Made by a program: the position numbers and the translations under genes. Positions 1,039 through 50,971 of a DNA stretch of 64,000 nt are shown here, one piece after another. The notes below the pieces were generated by a model that ran no database searches, had not been told where the DNA came from, and saw only the letters and a list, made by a program, of their open reading frames with translations. Source of the DNA: a virus (lineage: Duplodnaviria > Caudoviricetes). Position 1 is the first letter of the stretch. Each line of letters starts with the position of its first letter. The stretch is from the IMG/VR virus record IMGVR_UViG_3300014206_000007, positions 155,919 to 219,918 of that record, one strand, 5' to 3'.

Positions 1039-3978
1039 ATGGACTATAGTAATTTATCAGAAATTAAAAAATATTGGCTTGAAGAAATTGCACCAAACTA
1101 TTTTGATATGGAAAATACAAATAATTACCAAGTTGGTATATTTGGCTATATAAATGAAATAATTGGAAATACTGCTGAAGATTCATTCAATGCTATCAAT
1201 ATAGCAAGAAGAGAATTCTATCCAGTAACCGCTCAATATAAGCAGTCCTTATATAAAATGGCTGCAACACAAAAAATTGATTTACCATTAACAACTCCAG
1301 CATCTTCTAAAGCAATTCTAATATTCAAAGAAGATGAAATAGTGAGTAATGGTACTTATAATAATGGAGTCTATACATGTGTAATTGATAGTAGTTTACA
1401 AATTATGGCAGGAGATATTCCATTCCTTTTGGACTATCCAATAGTTATAATTTCTAAAAGAGAAGGAAATAAGTGGATACACACATCTCACTATCAAATT
1501 GATATAGAAAACTCTTTAAGTAATAACCCAAACCGTTATATCATGAATAAAACAATTATCCAGAGTGGGGTAAGATATGTTTTATTATCGGTATCATTAA
1601 AGCAACTTTCACTTGAATCGATGTCTCAATTGGTAGTGAAAGATAATATAGTTAATACAGTAACAATGGATTTTAGATTTAGTGGAAATTTAGCTAACTT
1701 CGAAGTTTTTTATCGTGAAGTAACTGGCTCTACTAATGATATCCAATTAAAGAAAGTTTTAAAGGGTGGCTCAGCACCACCTAATCCATTCTGTTATTAT
1801 GAAATCGTCGATCCAAATATAATAAGATTGACATTTAAGAAGAATGTATATTTCAATCCTGCATTTAATTCAGAAATTATATTAAATGCATATACATCTC
1901 TAGGAGATGCAGGAAACTTTGAAGTATTTAAAGATGCATTAACATGTACTGCAAAATCAGAAAAATACCCTTATAATAATAAGATGATTATTACTGGTAA
2001 AATTAATGGTAGTAGTAGAGGTGGAGTTAATGCTGTCGTAGATGAAGAATTTAGAAAATTAATTACTGATGCATATAGCACCAATAATACAATTACTACA
2101 TCTAATGATTTACAAATTTACTTTGATAAAGTTGCCAGAATTAATCAAGATGCACAAAAAACTAAAGTTCTTTTTAGGAAGAAACGTGATGATGCATTGG
2201 TTAGATTATATGGTGCATATATTTTATTAAAAGACACATATAATAATATTGTGCCTACAAATACCGTCGACCTTAATTTATGGAAGAATGATATAAGTCC
2301 AGCTGGTCCTGACTCATCTAATCGTATATTTATAAAACCAGGAACACTTTTTGAATATGAAACAGGAGTGTTTACTGCAAAAAAGGTAAGCGATTTAACA
2401 ATAGTTGATGATTTAAATGTGTATGATGATAATAGTAGATTTATTTTCTCAAATCCATTTCTTATCGCACTCACATTAGACCCTAATGTAGTTGGTTACT
2501 ACTTAAACTCAATCAATTCAATTAAACCAATTGAATATAAATATGTAAATGATAATACACTAAATCAGTTTATTGGAAGTAATCTTAAATTCTACAGAAA
2601 TGCATTGATAGGAGAAAATTTCTATAAAATTTCAATGACAATTTCGCCAGCATCAGAAATTGATCCGGCTACTATTGTAACGGTTAATTCTCCAGCAGAG
2701 GTCGCTAATGTCATTAGAGCTCCAAAAAATGGAATATTATTAAATATTCAATATGAAACTGATGGAGTTTATGCTAATTTCTTATATGACGATGCAACTA
2801 CTCAGAAAATTCAAGTAAATAATATCGTTAAAAAGAATATCGTTTCTGGAGCATTTGAATATGTTACTGGATATGATATCCAAATTGAAGCATCTAAAAG
2901 ATTTATACAAAATGATATCCTTGCAATAAAAAAAGATACCGATCTTGGTAGAGTAAGAATTGGGTTAGACTTTAAAAATATTTTATATGACAATCTCTAT
3001 TATATTCCATTTACTATTGAGAACTATGATGCCAATTTAAATAGTTATGATATTGCGGCATATATATCAACTGACGATACCCTTACTCTCGAAGCACATT
3101 TATTAATTGAACATGGGATTATTAATAACACTGGTATAGAGAATGACAATATTACAATTCCAATGAACCAATTGGATGCTGAAATACATGTCTTCTTCAA
3201 TAACTATGATACTAACTATTCCCATCAATATGACGGATTTGACTATTTTAGAAGTTATACGTTAACTAATACTTATAGCCTAGATGGTACTGAAGAAAAT
3301 TATAAAGTATCATTAATTCAGCAAATTGATTTTATCCGTAGCACAATGACATTTACAGATAATCTCGAAGACCCAACTAATTTTGGAATCGTGTTAAAAG
3401 AAGTACCAGTATCTAAAGCTAACTGGTGTAAATCAATATCGAATTTTAGATATCTAATCGATAATATTTATGATAACTATCTAAAATTATCAGATACATA
3501 TTACACATTAGAAAATAACTATGGTATTGACTTAAAATTCTTTAATACTTACGGTAAATCAAGATTCTTTAATGTTGGTCTTAAAAATATTACTAGTGTA
3601 TTGGATAGTGTCAACTGCTCATTTAGTTTTGGAGTTTACTTGACTTCATTAACCTCACCAAATGTATTTTTAACTGAATTTAGACAATTTGTAAAAGACT
3701 ATATAGAATCAATTAATTCAGTGAGTGTTTCCGGACAATCATTGTATATAATGAATCTTATTACTAGTCTGAAAATGAAGTTTTCTGAAATTGGTTATAT
3801 TGAATACTATGGTCTTAATAGCTATAGCCACGAAGCACAAAAAATTGAAGGATTATCGAATGCTCAAATTGTAGCTTCGGGAATAACTGACTATATTCCT
3901 GAATTTATTAATATACATTCAGTTCAAGAAGGCGCTGAGATGGTTCCGCAAATTAATATACTATTACTTGATTCATAA
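1039..3978 (+). CDS. Baseplate wedge protein (gp6-like)
   Basis: 979 aa, AAGGAGG RBS; REFYPVTAQ..SLYKMA, YTSLGDAGN, SRGGVN..TITTSNDL motifs resemble jumbo-phage baseplate wedge proteins. Confidence 0.65.
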   Translation: MDYSNLSEIKKYWLEEIAPNYFDMENTNNYQVGIFGYINEIIGNTAEDSFNAINIARREFYPVTAQYKQSLYKMAATQKIDLPLTTPASSKAILIFKEDEIVSNGTYNNGVYTCVIDSSLQIMAGDIPFLLDYPIVIISKREGNKWIHTSHYQIDIENSLSNNPNRYIMNKTIIQSGVRYVLLSVSLKQLSLESMSQLVVKDNIVNTVTMDFRFSGNLANFEVFYREVTGSTNDIQLKKVLKGGSAPPNPFCYYEIVDPNIIRLTFKKNVYFNPAFNSEIILNAYTSLGDAGNFEVFKDALTCTAKSEKYPYNNKMIITGKINGSSRGGVNAVVDEEFRKLITDAYSTNNTITTSNDLQIYFDKVARINQDAQKTKVLFRKKRDDALVRLYGAYILLKDTYNNIVPTNTVDLNLWKNDISPAGPDSSNRIFIKPGTLFEYETGVFTAKKVSDLTIVDDLNVYDDNSRFIFSNPFLIALTLDPNVVGYYLNSINSIKPIEYKYVNDNTLNQFIGSNLKFYRNALIGENFYKISMTISPASEIDPATIVTVNSPAEVANVIRAPKNGILLNIQYETDGVYANFLYDDATTQKIQVNNIVKKNIVSGAFEYVTGYDIQIEASKRFIQNDILAIKKDTDLGRVRIGLDFKNILYDNLYYIPFTIENYDANLNSYDIAAYISTDDTLTLEAHLLIEHGIINNTGIENDNITIPMNQLDAEIHVFFNNYDTNYSHQYDGFDYFRSYTLTNTYSLDGTEENYKVSLIQQIDFIRSTMTFTDNLEDPTNFGIVLKEVPVSKANWCKSISNFRYLIDNIYDNYLKLSDTYYTLENNYGIDLKFFNTYGKSRFFNVGLKNITSVLDSVNCSFSFGVYLTSLTSPNVFLTEFRQFVKDYIESINSVSVSGQSLYIMNLITSLKMKFSEIGYIEYYGLNSYSHEAQKIEGLSNAQIVASGITDYIPEFINIHSVQEGAEMVPQINILLLDS

Positions 3979-40648: not shown

Positions 40649-41509
40649 TTAAAACTCATCATCATATCCAATATCTTCCCTATCCTCATATAAGTTATTC
40701 TCCATAAGGATTAGAGTAGGATTATCAGAATTCAGACATCCATCAATATTTTTGACAAATTTAGTTAATACATTTTTAATGGCAATAGCCGTACATGCTT
40801 TTTCTTCCATAGTTGGTCGGATTGTAGGTACTTCATTTGGCTGAATTTCTACAATATATTCTACCGGATTTTCTAATACTGGAGTGCATACAAATGTTTC
40901 ATTAAATGTAAACCCGTTATCAGTACTATATGCCATTTTTCCATTCTTGATATTGATAATGATTTTTCCATCTTTAAATATTGTATTATTAAATGCTCTG
41001 AAGTAATCAAAAGTAGTATTACTTCTATATACGGCATTTGATAATTTATGGAATACATTATTTATCAAATTATTTATCATTATATATTGATATGAATGTT
41101 CGATAATTCTACGAATATTCATTATAGGATTAGCTTTATCGGCGGTTACAATACAATCAACTAGTAATTGTATGTGATCATTTGCAATCTTTGCAAGATT
41201 GTCAAAATTAAATGATTCTGCCCCTTTTTCAACATCTAACACATATTTCAAAGTATTTAAATCTGGTTTAAGCCTTCCGATAATAACATCTTCTCTTGGA
41301 AAAGTATTTGAAGTTCCGGCTAGAATAAATATAATATCACCCTCTGGAAGGGTAGATACTTCAAAACGTGGAAATTTCTTATTTCTATTATTAGAGTATA
41401 ATGTATCACGTAATCGGTAATTTAGACTACTGAGTAAGACATTAATGTCTATGATATACTCTAACGATGGTAATACTTCTTTAAGACTAAGTGCATTTGA
41501 TTTTTTCAT
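40649..41509 (-). CDS. Hypothetical protein (distant member of repeated-domain family)
   Basis: GGAGGG RBS; two-domain repeat-like layout. Confidence 0.7.
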   Translation of the reverse strand: MKKSNALSLKEVLPSLEYIIDINVLLSSLNYRLRDTLYSNNRNKKFPRFEVSTLPEGDIIFILAGTSNTFPREDVIIGRLKPDLNTLKYVLDVEKGAESFNFDNLAKIANDHIQLLVDCIVTADKANPIMNIRRIIEHSYQYIMINNLINNVFHKLSNAVYRSNTTFDYFRAFNNTIFKDGKIIINIKNGKMAYSTDNGFTFNETFVCTPVLENPVEYIVEIQPNEVPTIRPTMEEKACTAIAIKNVLTKFVKNIDGCLNSDNPTLILMENNLYEDREDIGYDDEF

Positions 41510-41553
41510 TAAATTTCCCTCCAATTTTTTTCTAAAAAAGAAAGAGTAGATAT

Positions 41554-42087
41554 CTACTCTTTCTCCAATTTCTTTTCTAACTCTTTTAGCTTATTAGCAA
41601 GTTTATTAACATACTTGCCTTTAATTTCTGATTTTAGAACTTTCTTATTGTCTTCGATATCTTCGTAGAAGTAGAAAATTTCATAATCGTCATCATCAAT
41701 ATCGAATACTTTTTCAACATTCTTTTTGATTTTCTTTGCATAGTGTTTATATGCCTTATTTTTAACAACGACAAATAAATTCACATCGCCACTATGCTGA
41801 ACCAATGCTTTCATTAATGCCATTGAAGCTACTTTAAATTCTTTTCCTTTAAAGAATTTATCTTCCATCTTTTTGAGTTTACCTTTATCAATTACATCTT
41901 CACCATCTTTTTCTCTGGCCTTTAATAACTTACTAGGTGGATTCATTCCTCCTAATGCTATTACATTTGCAAACTTTGTCAAGTTTCCAGTTTCATCATC
42001 AGTTGCATCAAATAAGATATAATCCTTTGGCTCAACAAATTTCTTTGCACTCTTTTTCCATTTTTTCTCACTAATTAAAAATATCAT
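41554..42087 (-). CDS. Lys-rich hypothetical protein
   Basis: AAAGGAG RBS before MIFLISEKKW; upstream in-frame extension overlaps tRNA-like RNA. Confidence 0.7.
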   Translation of the reverse strand: MIFLISEKKWKKSAKKFVEPKDYILFDATDDETGNLTKFANVIALGGMNPPSKLLKAREKDGEDVIDKGKLKKMEDKFFKGKEFKVASMALMKALVQHSGDVNLFVVVKNKAYKHYAKKIKKNVEKVFDIDDDDYEIFYFYEDIEDNKKVLKSEIKGKYVNKLANKLKELEKKLEKE

Positions 42088-42142
42088 ACCTATTTCTCCT
42101 TTTAATTTTATTTTTTTGTATTTGTGCACTATAATAATATAT

Positions 42143-42280
42143 CGTTGATAGTAGGATTTGAACCTACACGGGACTTTTACATCTTCCATATTTTCATACA
42201 GCCATAGTTAATTCTTTGACCAGCCAATTCTCATATTACATGAGGACGTCAGCAGTGTCTTCCAGTTTCACCATATCAAC
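42143..42280 (-). tRNA. tRNA-Leu-like RNA with expanded anticodon and variable arms (138 nt)
   Basis: Acceptor GTTGATA/TATCAAC; Leu-type D arm GTG-AAACTGGAAGA-CAC; T arm GTAGG-TTCAAAT-CCTAC; oversized central region; no encoded CCA. Confidence 0.65.
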
Positions 42281-42301
42281 GATACTTTAATATACTTGTA
42301 G

Positions 42302-42538
42302 TTAATGATCTATCATTTCACCATACAGAGTATTTAACTTTACTAGAGCTTTTTGTGCCTCACCATCTGATGAAGACCGATCATGTATATTCTCTAGAAT
42401 ATTCATATACCATTTATCAGCCAACTCTTTGCTGGAATACATCTTTTTAGTAATACCTAACACTTTAGTTCGGCTGGGTCCATCCAATTCCAATAATGCA
42501 AATATATATTTATCCGCATCAGTTTTAAAATACTTCAT
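42302..42538 (-). CDS. J-domain-like small protein (HPD motif absent)
   Basis: VLGIT..KWY..I...IHDR....A..A..KLN.LY..M follows J-domain helix pattern. Confidence 0.45.
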   Translation of the reverse strand: MKYFKTDADKYIFALLELDGPSRTKVLGITKKMYSSKELADKWYMNILENIHDRSSSDGEAQKALVKLNTLYGEMIDH

Positions 42539-42550
42539 ACTCATCACTCC

Positions 42551-43060
42551 CTACTCAATTAATGTTGCACTATTAAAGTCGGGCATTTCGAGTTTATTTA
42601 ACATAGTTATTACTTTATTTTCCATATTTTCTAAGTCAACATTCATTCGTCTTCTTATATCCATAACACTATATCGTGTTTTACAATCAGAATTGCTACA
42701 TATAAATCCTGTATAATTCGTATTGTACCTTAATGATCCTTTACATTTAGGGCAAGTTAATGCACTTTCTTGACCTTTATTAGGATATAAATATCCATAA
42801 TCAAGAATTACTATATCATCATTGTCACGATAACCCCAGTTATAATAATTCTTTAAATTATAACCGATATCATCAAAGATATAAGCTCTACTTATATCTT
42901 TTAATATAGACTTTATAGCTTCCTCATTTGCCGTAAATTGATCATGGTCAAATACATTGACATATTCACATATTAGTATTAACATATTACATTCATATGC
43001 TTTTGTTAAATATTCTGGAAGTTCAATACTTCTTTTATATTCAGTAAAATTGTCAACTTG
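42551..43060 (-). CDS. Protein-kinase-like gene, exon 2 (C-lobe plus Zn ribbon)
   Basis: QVDNFTE (alphaC Glu), ICEYV hinge, DDIG....NWG catalytic loop, ILDYGY, CPKC..CSNSDC. Confidence 0.75.
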   Translation of the reverse strand, partial: QVDNFTEYKRSIELPEYLTKAYECNMLILICEYVNVFDHDQFTANEEAIKSILKDISRAYIFDDIGYNLKNYYNWGYRDNDDIVILDYGYLYPNKGQESALTCPKCKGSLRYNTNYTGFICSNSDCKTRYSVMDIRRRMNVDLENMENKVITMLNKLEMPDFNSATLIE

Positions 43061-44477
43061 CGTCATTTTCATATAGATTCGTTAAATCTATACAGTTCTT
43101 TTATGAACTTCCCTATCTCTCAATAGGATACAAGACTATATCTTCCTTAATATATACTTTTACCATATATATTTAAAGCCCCATGTTTCCATTTAAAGGA
43201 ATTACTATAGACTAATATCATCTATAAACCTACCACTTGGCTGTACTCTACTCATTTCGTGTATTATTTTCATAATACCTTATTTTCAATCCATCTACAC
43301 AATTAAGTGTATTTACATATTTCTATGAATATGGATGTCTAACTTTGGATAGTCGTTGAACTCATTTATTTGATTTATTTATTTTATATAATTTTGATAT
43401 GGATTTTCGCACATTTCCATATTTTATATCACATACATATTTTAATGGTACATTTGTTATTTTTTCTATTTGTAATGGAGTAATATTCTTTTCTAATAAT
43501 TGACATACTTTATGAATAATATCATTACTATATTTATATTTATTTTCAAAGTATTTATCAAAATTATATTTAGAAGATATATCTTTCCAAAATTTTGTTC
43601 CATACACTAAATGATGACATAATTCTTTTATAGTTGATAAAGATATATTTTTATTAGAAAATTTATTATATATTTCTTTAGGTAATGCTCCATTTTCTAA
43701 TAATTTACATATCAATTCTATTTCATCATTATTCCATAAATTTTTCCTAGTCTTAATTATATTTATGGCATGACGTGTATTTTCTAATGGAGTGGTTTCT
43801 TCTAAATTATCAAACCAATTATTCCATGGCCTTCCATCTAAATGATTTATGTGATATTCATTTTTAATTTCATTATTTGACCATGTATAATATACTAGCC
43901 TATGAATAAATATAGTATATCGAATATTATTATCATCATATAAGGATATTATATGATATCCTCCTTTTTTAATTTTATGATGTAATATTATTCGTTTTGA
44001 TTTAGAATAGATTACTCCATTTTTTGTAATATAATATCGACTAAAATTATTTATTTTTCTAAATCCATATGCTTCGATATTTTGTTCAAAATTATTTGGG
44101 ATTAAATAATAAATATTTTTTCGTGATACATTATTATCATTACCATCCTTATATAAAATATCAAATATAAATTGACCACAAAAAGTATATGCCATAATAG
44201 TTGCTAATTGATATTTATTAAATTTTATAGTTATATTTTTTAATGTTATGAAATCATAAATATTACATTCTTTATCAATATAATAATTTTCATTATTATA
44301 TTCCGTGGGATATAATTTATTTATATTATCACCACCTATATTAATATTGTGCGAATAAATCAAATAAACTAGCTGCGTGATTGACTCTATTCAATACCTT
44401 GTTACTTAATATATTAAGTAGTATTGACTTAACGAGTTCGTCCCCGCAATTAATGGGGTTACGAGGCCTAATTGTTA
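43061..44477 (-). mobile_element. Group I intron (1417 nt)
   Basis: P1: exon CGAGGU pairs with intron GCCUCG, U.G at 5' splice site; R element GTTCAACGACTA (~43350-43361); S element AAGATATAGTC (~43134-43144); ends in G at 43061; splicing restores frame. Confidence 0.88.
43362..44363 (-). CDS. Intron-encoded HNH homing endonuclease (NUMOD4-HNH with HTH repeats)
   Basis: YYITKNGVIYS; IHRLVYYTW..INHLDGRPWNNWFDNLEETTPLENTRHA; two C-terminal helical repeats; start uncertain. Confidence 0.85.
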   Translation of the reverse strand: MIYSHNINIGGDNINKLYPTEYNNENYYIDKECNIYDFITLKNITIKFNKYQLATIMAYTFCGQFIFDILYKDGNDNNVSRKNIYYLIPNNFEQNIEAYGFRKINNFSRYYITKNGVIYSKSKRIILHHKIKKGGYHIISLYDDNNIRYTIFIHRLVYYTWSNNEIKNEYHINHLDGRPWNNWFDNLEETTPLENTRHAINIIKTRKNLWNNDEIELICKLLENGALPKEIYNKFSNKNISLSTIKELCHHLVYGTKFWKDISSKYNFDKYFENKYKYSNDIIHKVCQLLEKNITPLQIEKITNVPLKYVCDIKYGNVRKSISKLYKINKSNK

Positions 44478-44720
44478 ACCTCGATAATCTAAAGCTATTT
44501 TCACTACAAACCCATTATAATGAAAAGCAATTCTATTAGTTCCAGTTCCCAATTCATGGAAATCTGGACCTAATATTTCTTTTATCATTTCTGCTTTTTC
44601 ATTATTATCTGGAATATCAACTCTGCATGAGTGATAGTGTAATTTCTTTAACATTTCTTTTGAGAAGAAATGATTAATTAGAAATTTCTTATTGTCATCT
44701 TGTAAACGTGGTAATGCCAT
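44478..44720 (-). CDS. Protein-kinase-like gene, exon 1 (N-lobe)
   Basis: AAGGAGG RBS; ELGTGTNRIAF (Gly loop) ..VVKIA (catalytic Lys); apparent TAA stop is the first intron triplet. Confidence 0.75.
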
Positions 44721-44737
44721 TTTTGCTACCTCCTTTA

Positions 44738-45832
44738 TTATTCGTCATCATCGCTTTTATAGATATCACTCAATTTAAAATTAATTGAATTTCCTTTATT
44801 TGCAAATGATATTTTATTTTTTAACAATATTCTTTCGAGACTTGAATCTGCATCACTTTGTCTTTCTAGTCTTCTCTTTTCGTCTTTGCTTTTCTTTTTC
44901 CACTTTTTCAATTCTTTCTTAGTCATAGGTCCGCCGTCATATGCACCTAATTGTCTTCTAAGAAGTTTAACTGCGGTTCTATCCATGCTCTTCGATTTAG
45001 CTCCAATTAAATCTATACCATTTTCATATAATTCTTTTAATAATTCAATCTGAGCAACTTCAGCACGTTTTACATATCTACCATTAACTATTATTGGGGT
45101 ATTTGACATCAATGCATCATCCATTAATTCATCTGGAATTAATAATGAGTCTTCTGCTTCTTTGTAGATTTCACTGATAGATTTCTCTTTATAGATACCA
45201 TCTTCACTATATCCACCTCTATTAACTTGATTGAAGTATTCTATAATGAAATCAGTTCCTCTATTATTGCCAACTGTACTATACAAATTCTTTCGTCTAG
45301 TTTTAGCAGAAATTTCTTCTTTCATCTTTTTAAGAATCTTTCTACTTTCTTTTCCAGGCTTTTCAAATGCCGCATCTTCAGTAATATCTTTTCCAAATTC
45401 ATTCGGAAAAGTTTCTCGTGCGATTTTAAGTATATCGATATCATTATCGACTGCTTCATTATACTTTCTAGATGGTATTACTCCAGCCCTTAGATATTCT
45501 TTATTTTTTCTATTTTTCTTTAAGCGTGGTCTAGGTGGAAGAATCTCATCTAGCATTCCTACTTTATAACTATTTTTTATTAATGACCAACTTCCGTATT
45601 TATCAATAAGTAATTCTATATATTCATTATACAGATTTATTGCATCTATATAATCAAAATAATTTGAATATTTACGTCGTATTGATTTCGCCTTCATTAT
45701 AAGTGGGTCATTAGATACACCTTTAGAATAATAATCCTCTCCAAAATCATTAATCATTGGGTTAAATAAATATTCCGGAAATATGTTATCAGGTGAACTT
45801 GCGACAAACTCTAATTCGTCATTATAAGTCAT
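44738..45832 (-). CDS. Hypothetical protein
   Basis: 364 aa, AAAGGA RBS, early-type promoter 45890-45899. Confidence 0.75.
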   Translation of the reverse strand: MTYNDELEFVASSPDNIFPEYLFNPMINDFGEDYYSKGVSNDPLIMKAKSIRRKYSNYFDYIDAINLYNEYIELLIDKYGSWSLIKNSYKVGMLDEILPPRPRLKKNRKNKEYLRAGVIPSRKYNEAVDNDIDILKIARETFPNEFGKDITEDAAFEKPGKESRKILKKMKEEISAKTRRKNLYSTVGNNRGTDFIIEYFNQVNRGGYSEDGIYKEKSISEIYKEAEDSLLIPDELMDDALMSNTPIIVNGRYVKRAEVAQIELLKELYENGIDLIGAKSKSMDRTAVKLLRRQLGAYDGGPMTKKELKKWKKKSKDEKRRLERQSDADSSLERILLKNKISFANKGNSINFKLSDIYKSDDDE

Positions 45833-45889
45833 ATTTCATCTCATCCTTTCATTGCAATCTTTTAATTTTACTTGCTTTATACTGAATAA

Positions 45890-45899
45890 ATAATATATA
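45890..45899 (-). promoter_or_regulatory. Early-type promoter TATATATTAT
   Basis: Exact motif heading the kinase operon. Confidence 0.6.
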
Positions 45900-46006
45900 T
45901 TTATAAAGAATATTTATCAGTATATCTATACGCTAATATGTACTGATGATTATAGAATATAAAACAGTATACTCTTATACCTATAATATATTGACATAAA
46001 AAGATA

Positions 46007-46055
46007 TAAATGATAACTTAATTTGTGATATAAATACAAATTAAGTTATCATTTA
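46007..46055 (-). terminator. Terminator hairpin
   Basis: 20-bp perfect inverted repeat abutting stop codon. Confidence 0.7.
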
Positions 46056-46532
46056 TTATACATTATCCAATTCTTCAGCTTCATATTCATATAGATCGTA
46101 TATGTATTTTATATAAAATTCATTAAAGTTTTTTAGACTATCCTTAAAAGATTTCACAAGATATAATGTTATTTTATCTAATACTTCTTTAATGTCATCA
46201 TTACTAGTTATCTTATTCTCAGGTATACTAATAACGATATAATTTCTCGAAACGATTTCGATACTATTTTCTTCATTTGTTAAAATTAAGAATAACCCTA
46301 ATAGAGGGTCTAATGATTCCGTCTTACATAATAGTCCAACTGCCAATTGTCCACTGGCGATACTATTTCTATTTCTAGTATTTTTAGGATAAGTGCGATT
46401 TAAATTTCTTAAAATATCTGCTATCGATAAATCTGTTACATCTAAATCTATTTGAGCATAAGTCACATCTTCGATTTCTTCTGGTAAGAATGACTTAATA
46501 AATTCTTGTTTTGTCATAATCATATGAATCAC
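46056..46532 (-). CDS. Hypothetical protein
   Basis: GAGGTG RBS; start uncertain. Confidence 0.65.
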   Translation of the reverse strand: MIHMIMTKQEFIKSFLPEEIEDVTYAQIDLDVTDLSIADILRNLNRTYPKNTRNRNSIASGQLAVGLLCKTESLDPLLGLFLILTNEENSIEIVSRNYIVISIPENKITSNDDIKEVLDKITLYLVKSFKDSLKNFNEFYIKYIYDLYEYEAEELDNV

Positions 46533-46658
46533 CTCATTTTTTTAAATTTAAAAATATTTAGAGATACGTTATCTCTAAACTAAATATTTATATTTTATGT
46601 TAGTATAAAATAATTATAATTAAAAAATATAAGAATATGCTGCTGCATATTCTTATAA

Positions 46659-46952
46659 TTATCCCCCATTGATAGATGATGTGCTATCCAATATTTTGTA
46701 TGTTCCATCATCAGTGAGTTCAAATAGACCATATTGACCACAAACCTTTTCGTTAACTTTACTTGATATAAGAGTTTCATATGAATTACTTGGATTATCT
46801 GATTTGATTAGTTTAGCATTTTTTTCATATTCTTTTCTATATCTAATAAATTCATTGAATGCGTCTGATAACGAGCCGTTAAAATCATCAGGTAAAATGA
46901 ATGTTAGGTCTTTAATCAATAATATTTTTTTTGGTAAAGCCACATAAACCAC
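46659..46952 (-). CDS. Hypothetical protein
   Basis: AAGGGG RBS region; 97 aa. Confidence 0.55.
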   Translation of the reverse strand: MVYVALPKKILLIKDLTFILPDDFNGSLSDAFNEFIRYRKEYEKNAKLIKSDNPSNSYETLISSKVNEKVCGQYGLFELTDDGTYKILDSTSSINGG

Positions 46953-46974
46953 CCCTTGTATGCAATTGTGGATC

Positions 46975-47670
46975 TTATTCTTCTGATAGGGAACTTAATA
47001 CTTTACCCCATTCTTCAGGAATTTCAGGGAATTTAAATCCATCAACTTCAATGTATACATATTCGGGGTCTAGTACATCAGACATTACATCTCCGCATTT
47101 TAAACTTAAATTTACCTTTAATTCTATTTTTTGTTTAATATTGTCTGGAATAAATTCTTCATATTCATCATAGAATTCACCATAGTTTTGATAAATATAC
47201 TGTAATGGTAAAAAGATTTTATCATTACCAACTAATTCATGAATTGTCTTAGATAATGGTACTAATCCAATTTTTTCGTCATAATGTAACATCATAACTT
47301 CATCGGATATTAAGTATGGATTAATTGGTTGAGATAAATCTTCAAATTTAGTTAATACAATATCACATATATCAAATAATGTAAATGGTTCATGGTGCAT
47401 TTCTATACTATATCTTTTACCATTTCCAGATCGTATATTTTTTAAAATGCTACATCGATTCATATCTAAGTGAGTCTTGAGAAACTTCATATATTCTTTA
47501 TATTCATCACTTTTTCTAATAATAGATTCACATGTTTTTATGAATTTTACTCTGTCCTTATTATTTTTAAAAACGTATTTAGGTCTTTCTGGCAATTCTT
47601 CAATCTCCATCTTTACTGTTTTTGATGGTCTTTCGACTGAATTACTACTGTTATTCTTATATAAAATCAT
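46975..47670 (-). CDS. HNH-like protein (paralog of 37870-38505)
   Basis: C..IEMHHEPFTLFDI..H..LVPLSKTIHELV. Confidence 0.55.
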   Translation of the reverse strand: MILYKNNSSNSVERPSKTVKMEIEELPERPKYVFKNNKDRVKFIKTCESIIRKSDEYKEYMKFLKTHLDMNRCSILKNIRSGNGKRYSIEMHHEPFTLFDICDIVLTKFEDLSQPINPYLISDEVMMLHYDEKIGLVPLSKTIHELVGNDKIFLPLQYIYQNYGEFYDEYEEFIPDNIKQKIELKVNLSLKCGDVMSDVLDPEYVYIEVDGFKFPEIPEEWGKVLSSLSEE

Positions 47671-48409
47671 TATATTTCACCTCTCCTAATCTAGATAATA
47701 TAGTTTGCTTGCAGAAGAGATATTCTTCAACACTCAAGAACGAATGTACTTTAAGCTTATTATGATATTTATTATCTATTGATACTATTTGATTATAATT
47801 TAACCCTCCATACAATGTTGAATTATAAGGTATATGAATTTCATCAATTGATATATCGTTATAAAGCAATTCTATTTTTTCTGGAGTCATGTATTGTGAA
47901 AAATACATAGTCTTAGTACCATCTTTTATAATAATATCATAATAATTTCGGTCATTATTCGCATTTGACGGAATAAATGTAATCAATATGAAAGTCTCAT
48001 AATTATAATAACTTGATGAATTATAGTAATACAAATTATTATATACTGGAGAAATACCTATTGACAATTGATCTACTCTAATTTGTGCGTTTTCAAATTC
48101 TGCAGATGTTGACATTGGTGGGCTTAGTGGGAACACCCATTTTGCATTTGGTTTAATATTTTTTATTTTCATGTATAAATTAAAAATGTCAGATATAAAT
48201 AATACATCTAACGATGGAACTATAAAATATATTTGATTGTATGTTATTAATTTGCTTATCTTATATGCGTCAATAAATGACTCAGGAGTTAAAAGGACCA
48301 TTATTAATGTGCCATGTGATTCGTCAGTAATTCCGTATAATGTAGAGACATATTTACTGTCTATTGGCTGTTTAAAAAGTCCTAAATATCCAGATACAAT
48401 ATTTGCCAT
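47657..48409 (-). CDS. Degenerate metallo-beta-lactamase-fold protein
   Basis: Layout IYFIVPSLDVLFISD / YDIIIKDGTKTMYFSQY / LKVHS parallels MBL strands without HxHxDH; AAGGAGG RBS; AACA-N6-TA at 48437-48448. Confidence 0.35.
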   Translation of the reverse strand: MANIVSGYLGLFKQPIDSKYVSTLYGITDESHGTLIMVLLTPESFIDAYKISKLITYNQIYFIVPSLDVLFISDIFNLYMKIKNIKPNAKWVFPLSPPMSTSAEFENAQIRVDQLSIGISPVYNNLYYYNSSSYYNYETFILITFIPSNANNDRNYYDIIIKDGTKTMYFSQYMTPEKIELLYNDISIDEIHIPYNSTLYGGLNYNQIVSIDNKYHNKLKVHSFLSVEEYLFCKQTILSRLGEVKYNDFI

Positions 48410-48535
48410 ACTTTTTGCCTCCTTAGGAAACTTCATTACTAAAATGTTTAATTTATTTTTAACTTATTTTAAGCTCAAAAACAACGTTTATAATAAATTA
48501 ATTTTTAAATAAATGAAAGAAAGGGTGAAAAATAA

Positions 48536-50971
48536 ATGCCTGATAATAATCGATTTACCAGTTCAATTCATTTGTCATCATCAGCATTCTTATCAGAATT
48601 GATGGATATAGGCAAAGGGATTATATGGAAAAATTCTTATTTAGCAAATAAATATGAAGATCCAAATTATAGAATTCAAACTGAAATGTTTATGTCTGCA
48701 TCAAAAAATCTATTACCATTTGAGATAATACATCAATTTGACTATGCAACATTAATTACTGCAGGTTTATCTCCAACTGCGGCTACAGCAGCAATGGATG
48801 ATAAATATACAATTCCTTTATCATTAAGGGATACATGTGCAAATTTATATCGAAAAAGTTTATTGGATAAAAATTCAATAACTGGAAGATACATTAATTA
48901 TGATGAGCACAATAATTATTATCGACAGTTAATGGGACTTCCCGATATTGAAGATACTGATTTTATTTATATCATCAATAACTTGGATATAGATCAAAAT
49001 ACTCCATTACATTTATTACCATTAACCGATAGATATAATTTAGAGCAATCTGGATACTTAGATACTTTATTAGCTCAGTATCCTACAAAGAAATATATAA
49101 GACATTTAGCATCTAAATCAATAGATCCATATATTGCTAGATTGGCTGAGAAATTTAGTATATTATATATAACTCCTTCTGATTCTGATACATTAGATGA
49201 AGATTTTAAAGATGCATATGATAATTGTAGGTACACTATAATTAGAGTATATTATAATGCAGTATTTAAAAAAGATAATGAATTATATGATAACTTTTTG
49301 GCTATGTGTATTTTATTTATGACTATGCAATATATGTTTTATAAATACTTAGATGTCGATATTACAAGAGACTTTTATGATTTAGAATCTATTAAATATA
49401 TTTATGATAGTTATGGTGTTCCGTTCTATAGTTCTATACCACTAAACTACCATCAAAACATTATAAAAAATATAAATAGATTAATATCGTATAAAGGAAG
49501 TACTAGAGTATTCTTTGACTTATTCGATATCTTCAATTATAGTGGTGCTGATATATATGAATATTATATTATGAAAACTCATAGATTTGATCATAATGGG
49601 AATCCAATATTTGTATATAATCAAGATGGCTCACTAAATAAGCGTGAAATGTTTGATATAAAATTTGGTAAAGTTAAACTTTATAACGACCCACCATTAG
49701 AATTATCAAATACTGCAAACCATTTAACATACGAGGAGTTAACAGCACATGATCCATATTGGACATCTGATTCTGCATTATTAGATAAATTATATAATGA
49801 AGAGTATAACTTTCTCGAAACTAAGTATCTTGGCATCCAGACAATATTTAATATGATGAATATTGTCAATGAAGCTGCATATTTTATTCAAACTATAATA
49901 TCAAATAAAGTTGGATTAAAACTTACTACTTTATATTATAGTAATATTAACAGCAATATCAATATATTTGACATGCTAATTTATTTATCAGCATTAATAT
50001 GTAAAAAGTATGGATATGCTGGAAATATAGCATCGGAATTTCCAAGTGTTGCAAGAATTTTAGGATTTAATTTCAAGGATTTAGCAACTATCATTCAGAA
50101 TAATATTCGTCAGAATCCAATATTGAATGGTGATTCAGTTTTAAATACTCTATTATTAAATATGAATGTTAATAGCATTGCTTCAGTTAATTCAACATTT
50201 AAAACTATTACTACACTAAAACGACATTTAACTGAAAAAATAACCTCAGCTACATCTAGAGAAGAATATTTTGCATATTATAATCTAGAAAAAGTTATAT
50301 TATATAAAAATCTTTCTGATACTGCATATAAGAAATCAGATAATACTACAGCAGATTCATTTAAAGATTTATTAAATGATATAAATCCTGCATTATATAT
50401 CAGATTTTTATCAGTAGATTTAGATGTTGATGAAGAGATTGATACAATATTAATTTTATTTAAAAAAGCATGTAACGAATTAAAATATTTTGAATCAGCC
50501 GATGGTATTGATATAAGTAATGTAGTTCAATATCTGATCACTGTGCTAGACTTTTTTAAGAGTGCCAAATCAGAATTAACTGGATATAGTATTACATATA
50601 TAATATCAGCTAAAGGCATGAATAATATTAAATTTTTCTCTGAAATCGATTATCTAACCGAAAATATTTTGAATAAAGATGAAATTCATCGTTTAATCGA
50701 TAATATTGATAGAGTTACTGAAATAAATCGATTAAATAATGAGAATATTAATTTAACTGATGGTGTAGAATCCGTTTCCGAACCAAAAATACAAACTGAG
50801 ACTATTATGCCATTAAATGATAGCTTAAATAATACACTAAATGAAATAAAAATAAAAGATGACAGTGAATATTTATTTGATGTAATTAAAACTTCTATCG
50901 AAAACAATAGGCGTAATGAGGTTATGCAACTTAGTGATAAGTTAATATTATTAAGTGAGCAATTAGTATAA
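48536..50971 (+). CDS. Baseplate/virion structural protein
   Basis: 811 aa; EHNNYYRQLMGLP and SYGVP..KNINRLISYKGSTRVF resemble jumbo-phage baseplate wedge (gp7-like) proteins. Confidence 0.6.
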   Translation: MPDNNRFTSSIHLSSSAFLSELMDIGKGIIWKNSYLANKYEDPNYRIQTEMFMSASKNLLPFEIIHQFDYATLITAGLSPTAATAAMDDKYTIPLSLRDTCANLYRKSLLDKNSITGRYINYDEHNNYYRQLMGLPDIEDTDFIYIINNLDIDQNTPLHLLPLTDRYNLEQSGYLDTLLAQYPTKKYIRHLASKSIDPYIARLAEKFSILYITPSDSDTLDEDFKDAYDNCRYTIIRVYYNAVFKKDNELYDNFLAMCILFMTMQYMFYKYLDVDITRDFYDLESIKYIYDSYGVPFYSSIPLNYHQNIIKNINRLISYKGSTRVFFDLFDIFNYSGADIYEYYIMKTHRFDHNGNPIFVYNQDGSLNKREMFDIKFGKVKLYNDPPLELSNTANHLTYEELTAHDPYWTSDSALLDKLYNEEYNFLETKYLGIQTIFNMMNIVNEAAYFIQTIISNKVGLKLTTLYYSNINSNINIFDMLIYLSALICKKYGYAGNIASEFPSVARILGFNFKDLATIIQNNIRQNPILNGDSVLNTLLLNMNVNSIASVNSTFKTITTLKRHLTEKITSATSREEYFAYYNLEKVILYKNLSDTAYKKSDNTTADSFKDLLNDINPALYIRFLSVDLDVDEEIDTILILFKKACNELKYFESADGIDISNVVQYLITVLDFFKSAKSELTGYSITYIISAKGMNNIKFFSEIDYLTENILNKDEIHRLIDNIDRVTEINRLNNENINLTDGVESVSEPKIQTETIMPLNDSLNNTLNEIKIKDDSEYLFDVIKTSIENNRRNEVMQLSDKLILLSEQLV

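Follow-up and report, generated by a model that had tools for sequence, protein, structure and literature searches.

A gene on the minus strand of a jumbo phage genome (IMG/VR record IMGVR_UViG_3300014206_000007), contained in a stretch of 64,000 nucleotides (nt) that corresponds to bases 155919-219918 of that record and is called the window here, is interrupted by a 1417-nt insertion with the features of a group I intron. We interpret the locus as an IA-type intron, predicted to be self-splicing, that resides in a phage gene for a minimal enzyme with a protein-kinase fold and a C-terminal Zn ribbon, and we assign this reading as a whole a probability of roughly 80%. The limits of the insertion, the anatomy and homology of the intron, the kinase-like fold of the modeled product, the conservation of its residues, and purifying selection on its gene are established here.

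An earlier note on this DNA had claimed that two short open reading frames (ORFs) join in frame as ..ALDYRG|QVDNFTEY.. once positions 43061-44477 are removed, yielding a protein of 250 amino acids (aa). The minus strand indeed carries ORFs of 81 aa (44720..44475) and 173 aa (43072..42551), with one of 333 aa between them (44363..43362). A word-indexed search with exon 2 retrieved 28 relatives. The intronless protein P0003 from another metagenome, likewise 250 aa long, reads ..VVKIALDYRGQVDNFTEYKRS.. without a break at the junction and is 95% identical to the window protein over exon 2. By blastn, window positions 44800..44478 match bases 1858..2178 of L001, the contig encoding P0003, and window positions 43060..42404 match bases 2179..2843, the two blocks being contiguous in L001. 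Because they abut, the insertion spans exactly 43061..44477 (1417 nt, minus strand); the proposed junction is thus correct to the base, and an intronless allele, which the note had suggested seeking, aligns across G|QVDN. Exon 1 (44478..44720, minus strand) comprises 81 codons, M1..G81, and aligns to L001 up to base 2178, and exon 2 (42551..43060, minus strand) comprises 169 codons, Q82..E250, with the stop at 42551-42553. When joined, the exons encode a protein identical to P0003 at 232 of 250 positions. The neighbors of the window gene, encoding 364 aa on its upstream side and 81 aa on its downstream side, are found in L001 as well. The note's further statement that ORF callers miss the gene is accurate for the whole gene, yet the callers do report its two fragments.

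Comparison of the joined exons with the intronless allele gave a ratio of nonsynonymous to synonymous substitution rates (dN/dS) of 0.07 at a dS of 0.66, with low values in each exon. A chance join of unrelated exons is excluded because a contiguous real gene is matched and both exons are under purifying selection. These values also bear on a rival explanation in which the insertion is a nonsplicing mobile element, consisting of a free-standing HNH gene and flanking junk, that killed the gene and left the two ORFs as decaying pseudogene halves. Such halves are not expected from exons that have been under strong purifying selection since the split from the intronless allele, that are still in frame, and that keep every invariant residue of the family. 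Because the interrupted gene has been retained as coding sequence, the insertion must be removed at the RNA level.

The insertion has the anatomy of a group I intron (all coordinates refer to the minus strand). Helix P1 (44462..44483) is formed by exon bases CGAGGU (44483..44478) and intron bases GCCUCG (44467..44462), with 6 of 6 positions paired. Its last pair is the wobble U44478·G44462, located exactly at the 5′ splice junction, and the guide GCCUCG begins ten bases into the insertion. The 3′ terminal base of the intron is G (43061), which immediately precedes exon 2. The 5′ strand of P3, CCCCAU (44453..44458), pairs with AUGGGG (43184..43179) to form a long-range pseudoknot helix. The P4-P5-P5a-P5b arm (44374..44448) was located by a pairing script and exhibits covariation with the introns of contigs L015 and L029. 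Within it, the P element ..AAUUGCGGGG.. (44448..44443) pairs with the Q element ..UCACGCAG.. (44380..44374), leaving one A bulged, and the context of the Q element reads ..AAUCACGCAGC.. The arm continues through P5 (44437-44434/44387-44384), P5a (44427-44421/44397-44391), and P5b (44419-44413/44410-44404).

The 16-nt 5′ strand of P6 (44354..44369) pairs at all 16 positions with 43379..43364 and thereby encloses the 333-aa ORF. Beyond it lies the R element GUUCAACGACUA (43361..43350), which has 0 mismatches and is invariant in all related introns. The 5′ strand of P7, GACUAU (43354..43349), overlaps this element, such that the joint R/P7 entry spans 43349..43361. The S element AAGAUAUAGUC (43134..43144), also with 0 mismatches, comprises J8/7 and the 3′ strand of P7, AUAGUC (43139..43134). 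Between the strands of P7, positions 43145..43348 hold the hairpins P7.1, P7.1a/b, P7.2, and P7.3, then P3′ and P8, with compensatory changes among relatives. P8 occupies about 43178..43145 as a hairpin predicted by RNAfold with the loop UGGUAAAAG. The P9 region (43072..43128) contains P9 (43128-43123/43116-43111), P9.1 (43108-43105/43098-43095), and P9.2 (43092-43085/43079-43072). All helices located by the script are fully paired, except P7.1 with 6 of 7 pairs, and the core helices follow the canonical order, with P3 and P7 forming the pseudoknot and all of P, Q, R, and S in place. Additional hairpins in the P7-P3′ interval are a mark of group I subgroup IA, to which we provisionally assign the intron on these grounds.

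The first three bases of the intron are an in-frame UAA, and therefore unspliced RNA yields only an 81-aa stub. This codon also bears on a set of alternatives for the interruption, namely an intein, a group II intron, and programmed frameshifting or bypass. In their favor, the start of the HNH ORF (44363) shares the frame of exon 1. However, the intein is excluded because the UAA directly after G81, together with an ORF end that is out of frame with exon 2, blocks read-through. A group II intron is contradicted by the absence of domain V and of a reverse transcriptase, by the presence of the group I P, Q, R, and S elements, and by the lack of any Rfam group II match in the window. We regard this set of explanations as having almost no chance of being correct.

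Introns at the same codon boundary were found in contigs L004, L005, L006, L008, L010, L028, and L029, and in all of them a G directly precedes the codon matching Q82. The intron of L029 is complete at 324 nt, lacks an ORF, and has a P1 identical to that of the window, whereas L008 carries a different ORF that is placed upstream of P4. ORF-less relatives have a short P6 hairpin where the window has its 16-bp P6. Five complementary versions of P3 were observed (CCCCAU/AUGGGG, CUCUG/CAGAG, CCUAUC/GGUAGG, CCUGA/UCAGG, and CCCUG/CAGGG), P4 and P6 covary as well, and the strand order P3, P4, P4′, P6, P6′, P7, P3′, P7′ was checked in five introns. RNAalifold applied to four 3′ domains recovered P7, P8, P9, and one peripheral hairpin, with double changes at 15 of 29 pairs, and P8 and P9 hairpins are present in nine introns although their stem sequences differ. 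Note that the set used for covariation is small and its alignment was made partly by hand.

A second insertion site in the same gene family was identified on contig L015 (IMGVR_UViG_3300011008_000027), where a 371-nt ORF-less intron (L015:3469-3839) lies at D168|Y169 inside the DYG motif. This intron belongs to the same RNA family as the window intron. It ends in G, its P1 strands UUGGAU/GUCCAG place a U·G pair next to the splice site, and its P, Q, R, and S elements are those of the window intron. Two of the most conserved motifs of the kinase-like family have thus been invaded, a choice of target typical of homing elements. A third site near N106|M107, considered for P0120 of L028, was rejected: the exon 2 DNA there extends upstream to ..FTDNFTEFKRS.., so that the insertion coincides with the first site or lies no more than 2 nt from it, and an internal ATG had been called as the start of the gene.

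Covariance model searches gave a graded outcome. The Rfam model Intron_gpI (RF00028) has a gathering cut-off of 50 bits, and against a slice of the window 3′ domain it returned a partial match at 43111..43210 (22 bits, expectation value (E) 0.0013) that covers P8-J8/7-P7′-P9. The same model scored the ORF-less same-site intron of L029 at 46.7 bits (E 3e-9), below the cut-off, a second intron of the phage genome at 51 bits (E 1.6e-10), above it, and the DNA polymerase intron of Bacillus phage SP-15 at 36.6 bits (E 3.3e-6). In blastn searches, the intron 3′ domain matched 77 phage records, most of them from phages that infect Staphylococcus, Lactococcus, Vibrio, Enterococcus, and Bacillus. Among the matches are the SP-15 DNA polymerase, whose annotated coding sequence joins two pieces that flank an 'intron endonuclease', and Bacillus phage Internexus, in which the matching DNA separates two fragments of gyrB.

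Three points weigh against the RNA part of our interpretation. Rfam did not find a group I intron in the whole window at gathering score or in positions 42000-45000 at E<=10, nor did it find one on L015, L008, L007, L004, L010, L005, or L006; it misses the window intron because of the 1-kb ORF in P6. Splicing is inferred from sequence. The start of the intron ORF is also uncertain, as the candidate TTG lies inside P6 and no ATG follows for 56 codons. The failure of Rfam to call the whole insertion is what the pseudogene explanation has in its favor. Against that explanation, in addition to the state of the exons, the core helices are all intact and in group I order, and relatives carry ORF-less introns at the same site that are recognizable by Rfam. 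We consider decay of a nonspliced gene very improbable and, given P1 with its U·G pair, the terminal G, the P, Q, R, and S elements, the pseudoknot, the covariation, and the Rfam-scored relatives, hold it nearly certain that the insertion is a group I intron, as the earlier note had recognized.

The 333-aa ORF in the P6 loop (43362..44363, minus strand; length counted from the TTG) most closely resembles HNH homing endonucleases. It matches phrog_59, 'HNH endonuclease', with E 3.9e-24, and its sole sequence match in the PDB is 1U3E, 'HNH homing endonuclease', with E 2.4e-5 over residues 108-198, which include ..HINHLDG..NN..NL... We take 1U3E to be I-HmuI, which is encoded by an intron of Bacillus phage SPO1. 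Pfam HNH_3 scored 20.8 bits (E 3e-4) against its cut-off of 24.8 and is therefore a subthreshold match. From these similarities we classify the ORF as encoding a predicted I-HmuI-like HNH homing endonuclease. The ORF and P6 are interlocked, with the candidate TTG (44363) within the 5′ strand of the helix and the stop codon (43364-43362) overlapping the end of its 3′ strand. A Shine-Dalgarno-like run, GGUGGUGA, is located 30 nt 3′ of the TTG.

The exon sequences flanking the insertion differ in their conservation between alleles. Over its last 15 bases, exon 1 shows no difference between the intron-containing and intronless alleles, and the first 9 nt of exon 2 (window 43052-43060 versus L001:2179-2187) hold 3 synonymous differences (CAAGUUGAC versus CAGGUAGAU), which may affect recognition by a homing endonuclease. 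Contigs L004, L005, L006, L010, and L011 start inside the intron, a pattern consistent with assemblies that broke because the intron is present in some genomes and absent from others, or because one genome holds related copies of it. Outside the window, the phage genome carries a second group I intron of the same family (G000:C1:48995-49255, plus strand, L025; 74-76% identity), with its own 337-aa HNH_3/NUMOD4 ORF upstream of P3/P4; the exon downstream of it matches a PHROG 'terminase' family (E 1.5e-7). In one relative, an IS607/IS605-type pair consisting of a serine resolvase and an OrfB/TnpB-like protein (L007:959-2828) adjoins the 3′ side of the intron-split kinase gene.

The intron and its passenger resemble well-known phage elements. 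The DNA polymerase intron of SPO1/SP82 carries the HNH endonuclease I-HmuI. The window intron belongs to the same RNA class as the intron of Bacillus phage SP-15 (KT624200), to which it is about 72% identical over 183 nt of the 3′ domain. Like the Bacillus phage HNH introns, it carries an HNH endonuclease ORF, for which 1U3E is the best PDB match, and resides in a large phage, here probably with a Gram-positive host, but its host gene is kinase-like and not a DNA polymerase, gyrase, terminase, or other classical target. The position of the ORF also varies, being in the P6 loop under a 16-bp stem in the window and, at the same site in relatives, upstream of P4 (L008) or absent (L029). The td intron of T4, which carries I-TevI, is of subgroup IA2 with its ORF looped out of P6. 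Like td, the window intron has an IA-type architecture with P7-P3′ hairpins, accommodates its endonuclease ORF in the P6 loop, has a stop codon shortly past the 5′ splice site, and is inserted at codons of highly conserved residues; it differs in encoding an HNH instead of a GIY-YIG endonuclease and in its host gene and host phylum.

We then consider the protein that the joined exons would encode. An AlphaFold2 model of P0003 built with 20 homologues had a mean predicted local distance difference test score (pLDDT) of 85.2 and a predicted template modeling score (pTM) of 0.79. The elements of the model appear in the order beta1, Gly-loop, beta2, beta3, alphaC, beta4, beta5, alphaD, alphaE, catalytic loop, beta7, beta8, and DYG, which is the canonical order for a kinase, and past the DYG come a pair of Zn-ribbon hairpins and a C-terminal helix. 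Foldseek returned 33 PDB matches at E<=1e-3, all of them kinase-like among the matches listed, and headed by RIO2, RIO1, PRPK/Bud32, APH(2″), Lpg2603, and eukaryotic kinases; the lowest E was 1.3e-5, and template modeling (TM) scores were about 0.4. VIA-align gave Z scores of 9.0-7.6 for the best 50 entries, with no clearly non-kinase fold among those listed. In BFVD, two long relatives from uncultured phages (TM 0.71-0.72) are followed by phage proteins annotated as protein kinases, and many of the neighbors there are annotated as Ser/Thr kinases. The nearest Pfam-bearing Atlas clusters carry APH, Phage_T7_kinase, Kinase-PolyVal, or YrbL, and an Atlas structure search retrieved unnamed viral family members only. 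Structure prediction, one of the checks suggested in the note, thus points very strongly to a kinase-like fold.

Conservation among 40 diverse family members is concentrated at the positions expected for this fold. T61, N62, R63, K74, A76, D78, G81, D84, N85, E88, E104, and N106 are invariant, as are D145, N152, N155, D168, and the Zn-ribbon residues C184, C202, and C207, and G58 and G60 are conserved in >=90% of members. Roles were assigned to these residues from the order in which they occur and from predicted secondary structure rather than by superposition. The Gly loop, VVK, alphaC Glu, D..N, DYG, and Zn ribbon listed by the note are all present, although one subclade no longer has the VVK lysine. 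Its view of the gene as kinase-like is likewise borne out by the top structural matches and by the conserved catalytic set; kinase activity is a prediction.

Another group of observations weighs against the protein part of the interpretation. Lys74 is replaced by E, I, or S in one subclade (P0009-P0013 and P0018-P0020 in alignment A1). In the putative catalytic loop, the Asn follows the Asp at D+7 instead of the usual D+5, and in the model the C-lobe is nearly absent past the DYG. The TM score of about 0.4 to solved kinases is modest, and a Z score of about 9 is slightly above the tool background of 7-8. Pfam searches with the exons, P0003, and the 40 members gave weak Zn-ribbon matches only, and no kinase family was matched at E<=1 by P0003 or by the 40 members. 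A sequence-profile search of the PDB likewise gave weak Zn-ribbon matches and no kinase; the best of these, the McsA protein-arginine kinase activator (E 0.02), was taken as chance or a generic Zn ribbon and set aside. The sole PHROGs match was phrog_4301, 'unknown function'. Because no named kinase family is matched by sequence, we file the protein at the fold/superfamily level only.

Several of these properties also favor an explanation in which the intron is real but the product is not a protein kinase, being instead a kinase-fold ATPase, a small-molecule or nucleic-acid-end kinase, or a Zn-ribbon pseudokinase scaffold that binds a partner. RIO and Bud32 proteins act mainly as ATPases or regulators, and APH enzymes phosphorylate antibiotics. 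The closest folds to the model are RIO, Bud32/PRPK, and APH and not classical substrate-binding kinases; the C-lobe and activation segment are missing, with only the Zn ribbon following D168 in the model; the D+7 Asn spacing is atypical; the beta3 lysine is absent from one subclade; and sequence searches detect no kinase family. However, the K/E/D/N/D set and the Gly-loop are invariant or nearly so in the 40 diverse members, and a dead scaffold is therefore disfavored. Within the subclade that lacks K74, a 12-residue insertion (..[DE]R.F[RKQ]GGAG) with an invariant Arg precedes beta3, and this could be a relocated catalytic residue or could mark a pseudokinase branch. The many BFVD neighbors that are phage proteins annotated as Ser/Thr kinases also speak for phosphorylation of proteins, as do minimal phage kinases of similar size with proteins as known substrates, such as the T7 kinase (PMC13645617). 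On balance, we judge the non-protein-kinase explanation unlikely though substantial. For the kinase-like protein itself, we lean toward an active phosphotransferase, and we put a protein kinase, as opposed to a small-molecule kinase, at slightly less than even odds.

Among characterized proteins, RIO and Bud32/PRPK offer the closest structural comparison. They share with the model a minimal kinase-like fold with an N-terminal helical extension and a truncated C-lobe, as well as the Gly-loop, beta3 Lys, alphaC Glu, catalytic Asp/Asn, and metal-binding Asp, and they head the match lists of both Foldseek and VIA. The structural alignments show 9-15% identity, sequence similarity is undetectable, and a Pfam RIO1 search of the phage genome gave no match; the D+7 Asp-Asn spacing, the C4 Zn ribbon right after the DYG, and the viral context further separate the phage protein from them. 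The T7 kinase gp0.7 (Phage_T7_kinase) and JSS1_004 are likewise small phage-encoded proteins with a kinase fold, and a Phage_T7_kinase-bearing cluster is among the nearest named ones in the Atlas feature search (score 0.88). In contrast, hhalign of the family profile with T7 gp0.7 gave a probability of 0.2%, and the T7 kinase has neither a Zn ribbon nor an intron. Many host proteins are reportedly phosphorylated by the T7 kinase, which also reportedly disarms defenses (PMC13645617). A functional parallel with the phage protein would be one of analogy, by which the early role in host takeover or anti-defense that the note proposed is plausible.

Splicing, homing, kinase activity, substrates, and timing belong to a model that we infer for the locus as follows. 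A mobile IA intron of a kind common in phages of Gram-positive bacteria would have invaded the kinase-like gene. Transcription of the minus strand would give one precursor RNA, in which the intron would fold from P1 to P9, with the 16-bp P6 shutting off the endonuclease ORF. A guanosine-dependent cut after U44478 and ligation to C43060 would then produce an mRNA encoding the 250-aa protein. The I-HmuI-like HNH endonuclease would spread the intron to intronless alleles during co-infection, its target being the codons of the invariant ..ALD.RG|..DN.. at the beta3/alphaC junction. The product would most likely bind ATP and phosphorylate host or phage proteins by means of residues G58-T-G-T-N-R63, K74, E88, D145, N152, and D168.

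The kinase-like family is large. A profile search of 1.84 billion representatives yielded 1,160 clusters at E<=1e-3, many of which are 450-800 aa long with the kinase and Zn-ribbon domain at the N terminus. LPD28 (Pfam large polyvalent protein associated) was present in the C-terminal extension of 2 of 10 long forms checked, and a search for longer homologous proteins returned 1 protein only. Examples of long forms are P0064 and P0079 (L031:7793-9823). Many relatives (P0004-6, P0022, P0023, P0026, and P0044) are recorded just as exon-2 stubs. Among cultured phages in a collection of 50,697 records, none has a BLAST-detectable relative of the gene: megablast with the locus, and tblastn with both exons and with one long and one distant homologue, gave no match.

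The source record, that of a jumbo phage, is 219,918 bp long with direct terminal repeats and a completeness rating of 100%. Split subunits of a multisubunit RNA polymerase and an ORF of 3,289 aa are encoded in the window. The phage host may be Gram-positive, as suggested by the relatives of the intron. The kinase-like gene lies within a tight minus-strand cluster, where the 364-aa gene upstream stops 17 nt before its start and the 81-aa gene downstream starts 3 nt after its stop. A strong Shine-Dalgarno sequence, GGAGG (44729-44733, minus strand), is located 8 nt before its ATG. A scan for sigma-70 promoters in 41400-48600 found no excess over shuffled sequences in this AT-rich DNA and is thus silent on early or late timing.

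The gene directly upstream (window 44738-45832, minus strand) encodes a Lys/Glu-rich protein without a family match. Similar genes for Lys/Glu-rich proteins of 350-390 aa recur upstream in diverged relatives (L001:826-1920, L029:1292-2452, and L031:6716-7777), including L031 with its 676-aa long-form kinase, and the encoded protein may be a functional partner of the kinase-like protein. Elsewhere in the window, a tRNA-like RNA at 42143-42280 (minus strand) scores 30.5 bits with the Rfam tRNA model (cut-off 29) and has a 69-nt insertion in place of the anticodon arm; ARAGORN found no tRNA.

The intron and its HNH endonuclease constitute a standard phage mobile element, and none of these findings overturns current understanding. 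What is new, in a modest way, is the host gene. It belongs to a large kinase-fold family that has no name, carries a fused Zn ribbon, and has been invaded at two catalytic motifs, and the list of phage group I introns thereby gains a nonclassical host gene. Because gene callers split such genes into two 'hypothetical' fragments, the family is undercounted and mis-sized in databases. One gene family with introns at two catalytic-motif sites, and with the ORF in P6, upstream of P4, or absent, offers a natural series for the study of homing and of ORF gain and loss. The intron marks the kinase-like gene as a conserved one that is probably needed. A bolder proposal, which we consider speculative and doubtful, is that the Zn-ribbon minimal kinase is the founder of an unnamed phage protein kinase family of at least 1,160 clusters at 50% identity that would serve jumbo phages as a takeover or anti-defense tool like the T7 kinase, with intron invasion at G81|Q82 and D168|Y169 marking a gene that the phage cannot lose. 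Members of this widespread family in jumbo phages are reasonable candidates for host-manipulation or counter-defense enzymes.

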